This document shows positions 1,047 to 22,199 of a stretch of DNA of 64,000 nucleotides, one piece after another. Source of the DNA: a virus (Duplodnaviria; Caudoviricetes); the IMG/VR virus record IMGVR_UViG_3300010282_000004, positions 83,595 to 147,594 of that record; one strand, written 5' to 3'. The notes beneath the pieces were generated by a model that was given only the letters and a program-made list of their open reading frames with translations, was not told the origin of the DNA and ran no database searches. Position numbers and translations under genes: made by a program. Within the stretch, counting starts at the first letter, position 1. Each line of letters opens with the position of its first letter.

Positions 1047-1080
1047 AAAAAAATAGCAGTGTGCATTACACACACCGCCA
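1047..1080 (-). terminator. intrinsic terminator
   Basis: TGGCGGTGTG-loop-CACACTGCTA followed by T7 on the minus strand. Confidence 0.75.
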
Positions 1081-1287: not shown

Positions 1288-1668
1288 TTAATATCTTTCA
1301 TCATCTAAAATTTTAATAATACCACTTTCTTCCATATCGAATAGTCTATCTCTTAATTCTTCATTGCAATTATCAACTTCTTTTACAAATATAACATTGC
1401 CATTTTCAAATTCTTTTTTACATTCATTCATCAATTCAGTTTCATCATCATAAAAACATCCGTCCATTTCATCAAATGATCTAAATAGTTCTCCTCTGCT
1501 ATCCTCTGGATAATAATCATCACTCTTTAACATAGACATAATTGTTTCACCAAAATCTTTAAGGAATGGATATTTATCAACTGTATCCTTATCAATCGGA
1601 TCTTCATTAAAACTTATAATAAAACTACTACTACTAGAATTTGTTACAAAATCTGTTCTAACCTTCAT
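1288..1668 (-). CDS. TNSSSSS-motif protein, putative rSAM substrate/partner
   Basis: N-terminus MKVRTDFVTNSSSSSFII. Confidence 0.8.
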   Translation of the reverse strand: MKVRTDFVTNSSSSSFIISFNEDPIDKDTVDKYPFLKDFGETIMSMLKSDDYYPEDSRGELFRSFDEMDGCFYDDETELMNECKKEFENGNVIFVKEVDNCNEELRDRLFDMEESGIIKILDDERY

Positions 1669-1841
1669 TATTCATCTTCACCTTCTTCGTCTGGAATTGG
1701 AATACTATATTCAATTTCTGCACCACAATTACAACAATGCAACACATGGACAATACCTTCACCTTCATAGCAGAAATCCTCAAACGTAAAGTCATTATCC
1801 CAAATTACTGTCCGGCAACCACAATGAAAACATTCATACAT
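1668..1841 (-). CDS. 57-aa zinc-ribbon-like acidic protein (not in ORF track)
   Basis: MYECFHCG...LHCCNCG...DEEGEDE; GAGGTG RBS; TAATG overlap with the next gene. Confidence 0.7.
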   Translation of the reverse strand: MYECFHCGCRTVIWDNDFTFEDFCYEGEGIVHVLHCCNCGAEIEYSIPIPDEEGEDE

Positions 1842-1856
1842 TTTTATCTCACCTCA

Positions 1857-2579
1857 CTATCCCATATGATTACAACTAAATCTACTAACATCCATCAACT
1901 TATTTACTACATAGGAAGGAATATTCCCACTTTCAGAGCTGACACACACTTTACCAAGTATATATAATGGTGCTTGTTCTTTTGTAATATTTAATTGCTT
2001 GGTTTTATATTCAACTTCATCTTCGTTAAAATACCAATATAATATATCTTCTTTGATATCTTTATCTTTTATTTCATTAACACCATATTTCCCATAATGC
2101 AAAATGTCTACATCACTATTCCCAAATTCAAATATTGTAAATGGTGCATGTGGGAAATATTTATTATCAGACTTACTCATCTTATCAATCCAATATCTCT
2201 CATAGTTTTTATATGTATTACACTTTCTCCATTCATCTTCATACAAATAATCTAATGTGTTTACACCAAACATCTTATCCAATTTTAAATCAAGTTTGAA
2301 TATTGCAATTTTATCACTTTTTTTATCTTCATACATATCTCTATCATACATAATTTGATAATACATATTATCACTATTGCCAGTTAGTTCAAACCTTGCT
2401 TTCGGATCTATATTATCCTTTATGTAATTAAAAGCCTTGTTTAACTGTATTACATATTCTGCATAAAGCTTTTTAATCATCTGATACACTGACTCTACTG
2501 TAATATCAGTATAGTCCTCTCTACCAATAATAAAGCTGCTTGAAGATGAGTTTGTTACAAAATCTGTTCTAATTTTCAT
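1857..2579 (-). CDS. TNSSSSS-motif protein
   Basis: N-terminus MKIRTDFVTNSSSSSFII; GGAGG RBS. Confidence 0.8.
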   Translation of the reverse strand: MKIRTDFVTNSSSSSFIIGREDYTDITVESVYQMIKKLYAEYVIQLNKAFNYIKDNIDPKARFELTGNSDNMYYQIMYDRDMYEDKKSDKIAIFKLDLKLDKMFGVNTLDYLYEDEWRKCNTYKNYERYWIDKMSKSDNKYFPHAPFTIFEFGNSDVDILHYGKYGVNEIKDKDIKEDILYWYFNEDEVEYKTKQLNITKEQAPLYILGKVCVSSESGNIPSYVVNKLMDVSRFSCNHMG

Positions 2580-2588
2580 ATCTTCCTC

Positions 2589-3074
2589 CTAGTCACAATA
2601 GCCACGTTCATAAGGTATGTCCCCGAAATATTCTTCGATTGTATTCCAATCGTATCTGTATTCACCAAGATTATCTACAATGTAATGATGATCATATTTT
2701 GTAATATCTTCTTTACTCTCAGGGGCTTCTTCGTAATGATTTTTAAAACCACCAAAATACTTATCATTACGTAAATAGTATGGATTATCTGGTGTTGCTT
2801 TGCCAACGTAATAGTTACCAGCTACACGTAAATACTCTGGATAATCTTCATCGAAGTCCATATGCTTAACCTTATATTCTTTCTTAGGTTTCTTCTTGGA
2901 TTTGTTATCCTCATCTTCGTCATAATCATCACCATAGTCATAGTATAAGTCATTGTATTCTTCATTAGCCATATCAATTAACTTCTTAATCAGTTTACCA
3001 AATGTAATGTTTTTGGTATCAATAATAAAACTTGAACTACTACTGTTTGTTACAAAATCGTTTCTAATTTTCAT
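2589..3074 (-). CDS. TNSSSSS-motif protein
   Basis: N-terminus MKIRNDFVTNSSSSSFII; ATGA overlap with the rSAM gene. Confidence 0.8.
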   Translation of the reverse strand: MKIRNDFVTNSSSSSFIIDTKNITFGKLIKKLIDMANEEYNDLYYDYGDDYDEDEDNKSKKKPKKEYKVKHMDFDEDYPEYLRVAGNYYVGKATPDNPYYLRNDKYFGGFKNHYEEAPESKEDITKYDHHYIVDNLGEYRYDWNTIEEYFGDIPYERGYCD

Positions 3075-4153
3075 AGTAAATTTTTCTCCTTTCTATCACA
3101 CAATACAATATTTCTTCTTATAGGGCATCCACCCATACACTCTCTTCTATTTGGGCATTCACTACAAGAATTTCTAAAATGACTTCTAAAGTCATCGAAT
3201 TGTTTACTATTCCATGCATTCTGAATTGTGTCATTGGAAATGTCATATGCCCATCTAAGTTCTTGATTGTCAAAGCTGCAAGGAATCATCTTCATATCAG
3301 ATGTAATATAACAAGACCAACGTCCACCCTCACAAGTATCGAAGCTATCATGGTTAATGTTTTTAGTATGGTTAATAAGTCCAGGAATGCTACATGAATC
3401 AAATCCGATTCCAAAATCAAATGTCTTTGTATCAATGAGTTCAAAAAATCTTTTAACCTTATCATCATTTACATTCAAGACATTTGCAGTACTTCCTTGA
3501 CCAACATCTTTATGTAATAACCAAATAACATTTCTAATACCATTTGGAAAATCATTTTTTTCAAGCCTTTCAATAGCCTCATCAATAGAGTTATTACCAA
3601 GGACATAATGAATATTTGTTCTTACACCAGCTTTAAGCAACAACTCAATTGCTCTATAGGTATGCTCTTGTCTATACCAACTGATTGCAACTGCACCACA
3701 ATACTCCTTACAAATATCAGCAATTCTTTCTGTAAAACCAAGACCTGATGATGTAAAATTCGGAACAATACCACATCTTCTTGAGTATGCTAATATCTCT
3801 TCAAAGTTTTCGTGCTGATCTACATCACCACGACCACCAAGGGCAAATGTATATGTTTTATTAACACATTCATCTGCAATCTTTTTAAAGTTTTCAAATG
3901 TCATATTTGGCATTTTTGTTCCGAGACCATTTTGGTAACATTGCACACCGCCTTTAATGCATAACCCACTACAACCATGGATGCAATGTCCCATTATCCC
4001 TATATCAATTAACTCAGGAAAGTCAGCCATAAAAGGATCTACACCTGTGTCCTTACCATTCTCATCGATGACACCAGATCTCATATAGAACCCGGTCTTT
4101 GGATTAAACATTGATACAAAATTATTTTTTTTATCTATCTTCTTTATCATCAT
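3071..4153 (-). CDS. radical SAM enzyme with SPASM domain
   Basis: Cys cluster CIHGCSGLCIKGGVQCYQ; GGRGD (GGE-like); CEGG...PC and Cx2Cx5Cx3C SPASM motif. Confidence 0.9.
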   Translation of the reverse strand: MMIKKIDKKNNFVSMFNPKTGFYMRSGVIDENGKDTGVDPFMADFPELIDIGIMGHCIHGCSGLCIKGGVQCYQNGLGTKMPNMTFENFKKIADECVNKTYTFALGGRGDVDQHENFEEILAYSRRCGIVPNFTSSGLGFTERIADICKEYCGAVAISWYRQEHTYRAIELLLKAGVRTNIHYVLGNNSIDEAIERLEKNDFPNGIRNVIWLLHKDVGQGSTANVLNVNDDKVKRFFELIDTKTFDFGIGFDSCSIPGLINHTKNINHDSFDTCEGGRWSCYITSDMKMIPCSFDNQELRWAYDISNDTIQNAWNSKQFDDFRSHFRNSCSECPNRRECMGGCPIRRNIVLCDRKEKNLL

Positions 4154-6356: not shown

Positions 6357-6393
6357 AAATAAAAATGAGATACAGAAAAACTGTATCTCATTT
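6357..6393 (-). terminator. intrinsic terminator after recD2
   Basis: AAATGAGATACAG/CTGTATCTCATTT stem plus T tract. Confidence 0.75.
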
Positions 6394-20163: not shown

Positions 20164-22199
20164 TTAAATTCCTTCATTCACACTTCTTTCCAAACATTTC
20201 TTGAATGCATCATATGCAATCTCAATACCTCTAAGTTCATCATTGTTATTAATCCCGGTGCTACTGAACCTCCCACGACTAAAGTCGTAGGGTTCTCGTT
20301 TCACATATTTCGTAACCTACTTTCTCCACGAGCAGATGCGATAGTTCCTACCGCCATAAATATGTTAATTAAACAATTTTTAAACCTTCATTTAGTATAT
20401 TCGTTGCAGCATTAACATCTCTGTCATGATGAGTACCACAATTAGGACATATCCATTCACGAACACCTAAATCTTTTGTTTCCTTATTTATATATCCACA
20501 ACAACTACAAGTTTGAGAACTTGCATACCATTTGTTTATCTTAACTACTTTCTTTCCGTACCAATCTGCCTTGTACTGAAGTTGTCTTGTAAACTCATAC
20601 CATGATACATCTGAGATTGACTTAGCGAGTTTATGATTCTTGACCATATTACTTACTTGTAAATCTTCAAGGCAGATAATATCATTCTCCTTAATTAAGT
20701 TTGTTGACAACTTCTGTAAGTAGTCTTTTCTTTGGTTCGCAATATGTTCATGTATCATAGCCACTTTAATTCTTGCTTTGTTATAACGATTACTGCCTAT
20801 TGTTTTTCTAGACAATTCTCTTTGTAACTTAACAAGTTTGTTAAATGACTTCTGTAAATACTTAGGATTTTCATATTTCGTACCATCAGATGATATGGCA
20901 AAATCTTTTATTCCTAAATCCAATCCAACACTTTTACCAATTTTAGGTAATTGTTCAATCTCAACATCTGTACAACAGATAGAACAATAATACTTGCCAG
21001 ATGGTTCTTGAGATATAGTTGCATTCACGATTCTTCCTTGAGGAATATGTTTATCTCTTGTTTTAACATATCCAAGTTTAGGTAATTTAATTGCTTTACC
21101 TAAAAATTGTATGTTATTATTTATATAAGAGGTTCTATAAGAGTATCTATGAGTTTTCTTTGACTTAAACTTTGGATATCCAAATCCACTCTTAAAGAAA
21201 TTTTTATATGCCTGTTCCAAGTCTTTTAAAGTGTTTTGTAATGCACATTTATCAGAAATCTGAAGCCATTCATGTTCTTTCTTTAATGAAGTGAGATCCT
21301 TACTACATTGGTTATATCCAAAATTTTCTTTTGTCTCTTCATAGATTTCTATTCTTTTAGCCAAATAGTAGTTATACACAAATCTGCAATTACCAAATGT
21401 TTGTGCTAAAAGTGCTTTTTGTTTTTTGTTAGGATATATACGATATTTATATGCTTTTTCCATATCAATCCAACTTTCTACAAAAATAACAGACTGTTTG
21501 TTACAATATGTTATTCCACGTTTTTTCAAAAACTTTTTCAAAAAAAAACGAAAAAAGTTGAATTTAATTAACATATTTATGGTGGCTGATACTATTGCAT
21601 CAACCTACAACTTTAACCATTTTAGAGGTTGTCGTTCTTTTACGATTCGCTATTTCGTAAACAGTTCTCTAAGGAACACCCCTTACTTTTCAGTAAGGCA
21701 CAGACTATATCTTATCCATGTGTAGTAAAAACTACATTTAGGCGAAACCACTTCGGCATGCTTATGCCTACTCCCCTCAGGAGGGATAGTCGTTGAACGT
21801 TCTCCTATTCGGAGCTTCGCTGCTGATTACCAATTTTTGTAGAAAGCACTTAGGATTTAACCATATGCCATATAATTACTTTTTTCTGCTTTCGCAACAT
21901 TCACACTTAGGCTTATTTCATCCTTATGTTGTAGTGTAATTATCTTTAAGGTATTCCAGCAATTCAGTTTCTTTATTGGACGATTTCTCGCCACTATGCA
22001 CAGATTTCTCTATGCACTAACTATTGTTTTGTCTAACTCATGACTAAAGTCACGAGTGTGCGACAAAATTTCTAATCAAATCAATTTCCTTTGTTACATC
22101 TGACAGAAGTTTGATACAATACTTCTGATTTGATAGCTTACAATACTTTTCAAGTAATGCCTTGAATTCATCAACATCTACTTCATTTTTGTTCAACAT
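20164..22199 (-). CDS. 74-aa hypothetical protein split by the IStron (exon 1 22199-22075, exon 2 20263-20164)
   Basis: joining ...TTGAT|TAGCACC... gives in-frame MLNKNE...[18 protein letters not shown]...VNEGI*. Confidence 0.8.
20264..20370 (-). ncRNA. omegaRNA scaffold / right end of the IStron
   Basis: structured region from the tnpB stop to GGTTCAG; guide would be exon 2 (TAGCACCGGGATTAAT). Confidence 0.6.
20369..21463 (-). CDS. tnpB: RNA-guided endonuclease TnpB
   Basis: [42 protein letters not shown]; RuvC D-E-D intact. Confidence 0.95.
21690..22074 (-). ncRNA. group I intron catalytic core
   Basis: P GAATTGCTGGAA (21954-21965), Q AATCAGCAG (21820-21828), R GTTCAACGACTA (21787-21798), S AAGATATAGTC (21703-21713). 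Confidence 0.9.

Follow-up and report, generated by a model that had tools for sequence, protein, structure and literature searches.

Among the enzymes closest to the one described here, anSME (AtsB) is a SPASM-type radical S-adenosylmethionine (SAM) enzyme with two auxiliary clusters, which oxidises a Ser or Cys to an aldehyde within a motif in the N-terminal region of its substrate before folding. A short N-terminal sequence shared by otherwise unrelated proteins is also known from bacteriophage T4, where the capsid-targeting sequence of the internal proteins is recognised by the prohead and cleaved by the prohead protease. A further system, FxSxx-COOH, was reportedly described by Haft and Basu in 2011. 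In that system, variable small proteins are found with the radical-SAM/SPASM enzyme FxsB in conflict-system neighbourhoods, and the conserved piece is C-terminal, actinobacterial and released by a zincin peptidase (Kaur et al. 2020, PMC7159879). Here we analyse a 64,000-nucleotide stretch of DNA from a gut phage (the window), which forms the last 64 kb of the 147,594-bp IMG/VR virus record IMGVR_UViG_3300010282_000004 and in which a gene for a radical-SAM/SPASM enzyme is followed by genes for three proteins (the clients) that begin with nearly the same 18 residues (the tag). We find that the enzyme and the tag are inherited together, and that the linkage holds both ways, from tag to enzyme and from enzyme to tag, in phages and in bacteria. 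This is the core of what the original prediction, made from the letters of the window, had proposed: one SPASM-type radical-SAM enzyme coupled to a portable N-terminal tag on unrelated full-size proteins.

The tag and its linkage to the enzyme

The enzyme, the clients and their tags are placed in the window as follows (aa, amino acids; pI, isoelectric point; AF2, AlphaFold2):

3071-4153, minus strand: radical-SAM/SPASM enzyme, 360 aa (Pfam SPASM, TIGR04085, phrog_7293, alignment A1, AF2, Foldseek)
2589-3074, minus strand: tagged client, 161 aa, Tyr/Asp-rich and acidic, pI 4.65
3021-3074, minus strand: tag of the 161-aa client, MKIRNDFVTNSSSSSFII
1857-2579, minus strand: tagged client, 240 aa, of a 77-member family, with a confident AF2 fold
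2526-2579, minus strand: tag of the 240-aa client, MKIRTDFVTNSSSSSFII
1288-1668, minus strand: tagged client, 126 aa, pI 4.06, a member of the commonest partner family
1615-1668, minus strand: tag of the 126-aa client, MKVRTDFVTNSSSSSFII

The order of the four genes, their coordinates and their strand are borne out, as is the overlap of the ATG of the 161-aa gene with the TGA of the enzyme gene (ATGA, 3071-3074). All three client starts read MK[IV]R[NT]DFVTNSSSSSFII, with 16 of 18 positions identical in all three, while past residue 20 the clients fall into three separate BLAST clusters, in accordance with the proposed contrast between near-identical starts and dissimilar bodies. Searched with a degenerate DNA pattern for DFVTN, the window gave three perfect matches and no more, where 0.98 would be expected even with one mismatch allowed, and the entire 147.6-kb virus record holds these three tagged starts only.

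The Ser run of the three window genes is encoded by AGT AGT AGT TCA AGT, TCA TCT TCA AGC AGC and TCT AGT AGT AGT AGT, respectively. Searching IMG/VR with the degenerate tag DNA pattern returned at least 113 stretches with at least 290 complete tagged open reading frames (ORFs), at least 223 of them unique. Among the matches listed, the median length of these ORFs is 143 aa, positions 14-18, which the pattern leaves free, are still S, S, F/Y, I/V/L and I/C/L/V, and conservation drops sharply past position 18. Since all six Ser codons are in use at each Ser position, and 228 proteins carry 203 distinct tag DNAs, it is selection on the peptide, and not on the DNA, that keeps the tag, which agrees with what had been supposed from the differing Ser codons of the window. 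The five-Ser run itself is invariant, with almost no Thr, Ala or Gly accepted. At a larger scale, a tag profile of 32 columns matched 16,306 out of 1.84 billion cluster representatives at E ≤0.001 (client clusters counted at 50% identity), with nearly all matches beginning at residue 1. Some proteins (P0201, P0202, P0204, P0206 and P0210) have two tags, one N-terminal and one internal, and most of the internal copies still start with Met-Lys and are thus probably the start of a second, adjacent gene read together with the first.

Co-occurrence of the tag and the enzyme was checked from both sides. Starting from the tag, 82 of 93 tag-bearing viral records carry the enzyme (44 of 50 in a first batch and 38 of 43 in a second), and tagged proteins are not commonly found without it: among the tag-bearing viral records that are at least 90% complete, 26 of 27 encode the enzyme. 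The 44 enzyme-encoding records of the first batch contain 147 tags, every one of them on the enzyme strand; 136 are found downstream of the enzyme gene, and 131 are no more than 5 kb away. Starting from the enzyme, tags with the core motif are present at 74 of 80 viral loci, and the six tagless loci have less than 3.8 kb of downstream sequence each. Many of the viral contigs are closely related, and these raw counts overstate the number of independent observations.

The enzyme also has 499 bacterial relatives, mostly in Lachnospiraceae, Oscillospiraceae and other Clostridia, and these relatives point to the likely host range. Tags are present at 70 of 80 bacterial loci, where all 95 tags lie on the same strand and within 5 kb, in several gene orders. 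The commonest bacterial layout is a single tagged gene of ~125 aa directly upstream of the enzyme gene, and this partner is of the same family as the 126-aa client of the window, a family that is the commonest partner overall and, where a bacterial locus has a single partner, usually provides it. As gene orders and hosts vary, the pairing must have been kept through many rearrangements. Among 120 neighbour proteins in the bacterial loci, only helix-turn-helix regulators, helicases and recombinases recur; no recurrent peptidase or exporter was found near the pair in this set, and for that reason the product probably stays an intracellular protein. A search of PADLOC-DB 2.0 gave no match for the enzyme or the clients, whether taken from the window or from a bacterial locus. 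At one bacterial locus, in Butyrivibrio sp. XPD2006 (L300:5448-6645), a type II restriction endonuclease and its Xre-type controller are encoded ~1 kb away from the pair, with a PIF1/RecD-like helicase next, which makes for a defence or mobile-island setting.

The pairing extends to cultured phages. Enzyme relatives with 27-29% identity are encoded in 171 cultured phage records, RB43 included, and the hosts of these enzyme-bearing T4-like phages are Klebsiella, Enterobacter, Cronobacter, Citrobacter and Escherichia. RB43 encodes two proteins starting MKIRSGFVSNSSSSSFI[VI], ~20 kb from the enzyme gene; their tag was located via phrog_7397, and a loose WSN codon pattern gave only false matches in RB43. 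The RB43-type tagged family is present in 175 records, with genus counts almost equal to those of the enzyme, so that in the T4-like phages adjacency is lost and genome co-occurrence is kept. The RB43 tag is identical at 14 of 18 positions, against 28% identity for the enzyme, and is thus far the better conserved of the two. The T4-like phages are one clade and hence count as one event.

Rare variants of the tag are common to all tags of a genome, even though the proteins that carry them are unrelated and the codons differ. In a viral clade with an enzyme 66-68% identical to that of the window, all three tags have Gly in place of Asp at position 6 (G6 instead of D6), encoded by GGA, GGC and GGG. 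Both tags of locus L233 have S6 and A14, both tags of L252 have A14, and both RB43 tags have G6 and S9, while position 6 is mixed in only 1 of 84 multi-tag loci. The enzymes of the D6 group are 54-100% identical to that of the window, a range that includes the G6-clade enzyme, and yet the latter differs at 8 columns out of the 104 with a conservation of at least 95% in the D6 group. These changes include a loop (26-39) in the N-terminal extension of the enzyme (residues 1-47, which the AF2 model builds mostly as three short strands and a loop), where SGVIDENGKDTG becomes SDDLTTG, G27D included. The others are K/R178T, column 248, S270T, D272E and T273P, with 270-273 just before the SPASM residue Cys274; column 248 is already G instead of the usual K in the D6-type enzyme of the window, and hence is not tied to D6. 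Concerted tag variants accompanied by enzyme changes have the look expected of co-evolution between a tag and its reader, which with about four independent events is a lead and not proof. By their positions, the changes make the N-terminal extension, together with the cleft beside the first auxiliary cluster, candidate sites of tag contact.

The enzyme and the client proteins

The enzyme scores above the cutoff of the Pfam SPASM model (PF13186; 27.5 against 21.5 bits) and just above that of TIGR04085 (28.0 against 27 bits), and phrog_7293 matches it at E 3e-25, while it stays far below the cutoffs of the NCBIfam equivalog models (anSME, PqqE, the mycofactocin maturase and others). Its AF2 model has a predicted local distance difference test score (pLDDT) of 92.2 and matches many radical-SAM structures with a Foldseek probability of 1.00, and by this model the enzyme has the partial TIM-barrel fold of radical-SAM enzymes. 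The nearest solved structures are SuiB, anSME, SkfB, PqqE and CteB, with Foldseek template modelling (TM) scores of ~0.53-0.69, all of which act on peptides or proteins; the best sequence-profile match is SkfB, at E 1e-5.

At the level of motifs, the SPASM motif is complete (C330-x2-C333-x5-C339-x3-C343), a PNFTSSG motif is present, and the Gly-rich SAM motif (GGxGD), L105-G106-G107-x-G109-D, is invariant or nearly so in alignment A1 (38 sequences). The cluster loop reads C57-x7-C65-x6-C72-Y73 in the window enzyme, against the canonical C-x3-C-x2-C, with C57 and C72-Y73 invariant in alignment A1. Since distant members of the family (L122, L123, L129 and L131) have the canonical spacing at the same spot, the cluster loop would have been expanded, not lost. 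Three of these distant members (L123, L129 and L131) lack the C-terminal C-x2-C-x5-C-x3-C half of SPASM, and in the genomes of these three (G015, G034 and G039) the tags lie ~1.8 kb to 77 kb from the enzyme gene.

In total, 4,507 relatives of the enzyme were found, the best 120 of the 4,507 being at least 71% identical. Compared across the same genomes, the enzyme is 62-77% identical and the client bodies 24-42%, while the tag is almost 100% identical. Two long versions of the enzyme gene were considered as domain fusions and rejected. One of them, in a related phage (L052:3795-6131), carries an intein of ~420 aa that starts with Cys, ends with HN followed by Cys, has LAGLIDADG-type endonuclease motifs and interrupts the protein immediately ahead of the Gly-rich SAM-binding motif (FQ|intein|CALGGAGD). 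The other, in a different phage (L303:1458-3317), is a 619-aa open frame in which the enzyme gene is directly preceded, in the same frame, by a GIY-YIG homing-endonuclease-like gene, seemingly inserted as a selfish element.

The client bodies are unrelated to one another, acidic and fast-evolving, and most belong to no known family. Once stripped of the tag, the clients among the matches listed form 40 BLAST clusters, and in a profile-profile comparison of the 12 largest client clusters no pair reached a probability of 10%. Client lengths run from ~80 to more than 1000 aa, mostly 80-250 aa. Among 55 client representatives, Pfam gave one strong match, to BspA-type leucine-rich repeats (E 4e-35), and two further weak ones (E ~1e-4). 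The median client pI is 4.5, with 89% below 5 and none above 8; for comparison, 52% of the other small ORFs of the window have a pI below 5 and 28% have one above 8. Relatives of the 161-aa body were found in 3 of 80 enzyme-anchored viral loci. For the 126-aa client, tblastn against cultured phages gave no match and an ESM Atlas feature search returned unnamed viral clusters only.

The family of the 240-aa client was gathered by whole-length homology instead of the tag pattern, giving 77 sequences with a mean column identity of 31%, in which M1, K2, R4, V8-S13 and S15 of the tag are invariant. Also invariant in this family is CNHMG at the very C-terminus (C236, N237, H238, M239 and G240; window 1857-1874), a possible additional site of function or modification peculiar to this family; AF2 puts residues 234-237 in the final strand. 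The AF2 model of the 240-aa client has a pLDDT of 89.9, with residues 1-10 below 50 and S13-I18 forming the first strand of the fold. In this model, the first ten tag residues look free to bind a partner, and this, together with the incorporation of S13-I18 into the fold, favours action of the enzyme before or during folding. Outside its own family, no relatives of this fold were found: a Foldseek search of the PDB gave a best E of 0.24, for a 70-column stretch of the PP-loop enzyme LarE, while VIA-align reached a best Z of 5.0, BFVD a best E of 0.12 and ESM Atlas the protein's own family only. A PP-loop-like role for the Ser run, as a loop that binds phosphate, was considered and dropped, since the run precedes the strand instead of following it.

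A proposed mechanism and its alternatives

We propose a two-part system made up of one radical-SAM/SPASM enzyme and a changing set of clients, each of which bears the same N-terminal address of 16-18 residues, MK[IV]RxDFVTNSSSSSF[IV][IV]. We are fairly confident that the enzyme recognises the tag directly, in which case the free first ten residues would probably adopt strand form and bind to the three-strand extension of the enzyme and to the cleft that adjoins its first auxiliary cluster. SAM-derived radical chemistry would then alter one tag residue, most likely within T9-S15, the candidate changes being conversion of Ser to an aldehyde as by anSME, epimerisation or a cross-link. Since residues 13-18 form the first strand of the client fold, the enzyme would act before or during client folding, and one enzyme would in this manner mature several early phage effector proteins. 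That the enzyme makes a covalent change within the tag has, in our estimate, slightly less than an even chance, and the same estimate applies to the whole chain, from direct recognition through covalent change. More tentative still is the broadest form of the proposal, in which one phage radical enzyme covalently marks a universal 16-residue tag on more than 16,000 fast-evolving acidic proteins, the mark being needed against the host; in that form, the mark could be, for example, a Ser-derived aldehyde, a D-residue or a cross-link, and the process would parallel, at the level of proteins, the maturation of peptides guided by a leader.

A change inside the tag is suggested by the tag being the only feature common to the clients, and by the run of five Ser, which would be odd for a mere grip. 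By analogy, the nearest enzymes oxidise or cross-link residues of the peptides they bind, and the minimal bacterial unit consists of the enzyme and one tagged protein. Several observations weigh against such a change. What is conserved in peptide pathways guided by a leader is usually the grip and not the residue that is altered, and Cys, Trp, Tyr and the C/S-x-P-x-R motif, the targets of known SPASM enzymes, are all missing from the tag. The enzyme has a non-canonical cluster loop and no match to Pfam Radical_SAM (PF04055), which matches 1 of the 120 relatives listed, so that its activity is putative. Half of the tag would also be structural, with residues 13-18 buried as a core strand in the modelled client. 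Because P0202 keeps DFVTNSSSTSFII at a true internal site, without the MKIR start, the N-terminus need not always be free. Finally, the independent events of linkage and co-variation are far fewer than the raw counts, with ~4 for co-variation. A complex prediction with the enzyme (A1), the 240-aa client (A3), SAM and three 4Fe-4S clusters scored 0.01 and 0.24 against a mark of 0.32 and was used for neither side.

The alternatives differ in what they make of the tag. It could be a docking handle only, with the enzyme acting at variable sites deeper in the client or on a third molecule brought by the client (a host protein, nucleic acid or metabolite), in which latter case the clients would be interchangeable targeting or regulatory subunits. 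We regard this, the main alternative, as unlikely overall, although linkage and co-variation fit binding as well as they fit modification, and the conserved leader in RiPP systems (ribosomally synthesised and post-translationally modified peptides) is the recognition element. The BspA-type leucine-rich repeats of one client family are a binding module, and in the 240-aa family the invariant C-terminal CNHMG could be the real site. Against such a handle stand the clients, which share the tag alone, so that a defined site elsewhere would be hard to specify, and the invariant five-Ser run, which is unusual for a mere grip; moreover, the commonest bacterial layout pairs the enzyme with one small acidic tagged protein and shows no recurrent third partner.

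It is much less probable that the tag is read by another machine, for degradation, virion packaging or assembly, and that the enzyme only travels along in a mobile gene block. The T4 internal proteins offer a precedent in their short N-terminal capsid-targeting sequence, and the ~20-kb distance between the RB43-type tagged genes and the enzyme gene would fit. Against such a reader stand the pairing in Firmicutes phages, enterobacterial T4-like phages and bacterial chromosomes with differing gene orders, the presence of the enzyme in all but one of the 27 near-complete tag-bearing virus genomes, the coincidence of tag variants with enzyme changes, and the lack of a recurrent virion gene among the nearest neighbours of the bacterial pair. 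Slimmer again is the chance that the clients are one old, fast-evolving family whose best-kept motif, a first strand and a Ser-rich loop, is what we call the tag, the enzyme having an unrelated role. That S13-I18 forms the first strand of the 240-aa client fold, that a tandem-duplicated protein has an internal copy of the motif and that all clients are acidic would be in keeping with common descent, but the profile-profile comparison of the 12 largest families found no probability above 10%, sizes range from ~80 to more than 1000 aa with leucine-rich repeats following the tag in one family, and the 240-aa fold matches its own family alone. Common descent would also leave the two-way linkage to the enzyme unexplained.

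The locus and its place among described systems

The gene cluster is adjoined by a replication module with genes for a DNA polymerase, a RecD/Dda-like helicase, a RecJ-like nuclease, a primase and a DnaB-like helicase. With DNA polymerase, primase and helicase genes beside the cluster on an IMG/VR virus contig, the description of the system as phage-encoded stands. Further features of the locus are:

1668-1841, minus strand: Zn-ribbon gene, 57 aa, C-x2-C...C-x2-C, between tagged genes
1054-1080, minus strand: terminator-like hairpin, 12-pair stem and T run, ~200 nucleotides past the last tagged gene
6363-6393: hairpin of 13 perfect pairs, flanked on each strand by T runs, separating the helicase gene from a block of small genes leading into the enzyme gene

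Terminator-like sites number 6, against 0.9 expected. The hairpin at 1054-1080 is likely the end of the transcription unit, which would start past the hairpin at 6393-6363, and the latter looks like a two-way terminator. The Zn-ribbon gene, which had been counted as part of the cluster, indeed lies there, but it does not belong to the system: no relatives of it were found in the 160 enzyme-anchored loci, and its presence in the window is incidental. Its Pfam matches are sub-threshold only. Four small upstream genes, considered as system members together with the Zn-ribbon gene, were rejected likewise, as they are absent from all 160 related loci. Some 2 kb beyond the last gene of the replication module, the window also holds a gene for a 401-aa transposase (20369-21574, minus strand; phrog_506, E 2.5e-140).

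In full-text literature searches for the motif and for phage radical-SAM tag systems, no description was found. Pfam, NCBIfam and PADLOC have no family that covers the tag or the clients, and neither these resources nor the published papers searched assign a function to the tag, as the original prediction had also held. Should the enzyme mark the tag, viruses would possess a hitherto undescribed post-translational modification system of very large size, with 16,306 client clusters and thousands of enzymes distributed over phages of gut Firmicutes, mobile elements of bacteria and cultured T4-like phages that infect E. coli and Klebsiella. Such a system would extend the "leader plus maturase" logic of radical-SAM enzymes from peptides to whole proteins, provide a handle on thousands of early phage proteins to which no function is assigned, and might give a portable tag for enzyme-directed protein modification. 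Since RB43 and its relatives grow on laboratory hosts, they offer a laboratory model in which direct testing is possible.

Set beside described systems, the locus seems to combine a radical-SAM/SPASM maturase with a recognition sequence, applied here to many whole phage proteins. It resembles anSME in the proposed action on a whole protein near its N-terminus before folding, and in structure (TM 0.60, E 7e-9). The differences are that the window enzyme scores 15.2 bits against a TIGR03942 cutoff of 349, that the tag has no C/S-x-P/A-x-R motif, and that many unrelated clients carry the tag at residue 1 in phages and mobile elements, whereas anSME serves one enzyme family. The best fold and sequence matches are the SPASM/twitch maturases of RiPPs (SuiB, SkfB, CteB and PqqE), among which SuiB reaches a TM score of 0.69 and SkfB is the nearest in sequence, and the arrangement of one enzyme with several precursors that share a conserved N-terminal recognition sequence is similar. 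In contrast to RiPP precursors, the clients are proteins, mostly of 80-250 aa and up to ~1000 aa, the modelled one of which folds confidently (pLDDT ~90); the bacterial loci have no recurrent leader peptidase or exporter, and the tag is invariant across enzymes that are just 28% identical. No winged-helix RiPP recognition element domain was seen in the enzyme, as judged by the secondary structure of the model alone, and by these features the system does not appear to belong to a RiPP pathway.

The FxSxx-COOH system shares with the present one its variable small proteins, a single short conserved piece and an adjoining radical-SAM/SPASM gene. It was ruled out as the same system, since the tag here is N-terminal and the FxsB family model is absent among the NCBIfam matches of the enzyme; a recurrent peptidase gene is likewise missing here. 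The T4 capsid-targeting sequence is similar in being a short N-terminal sequence shared by small unrelated phage proteins, whereas the present tag is also found in bacterial chromosomes and tracks a radical-SAM enzyme.

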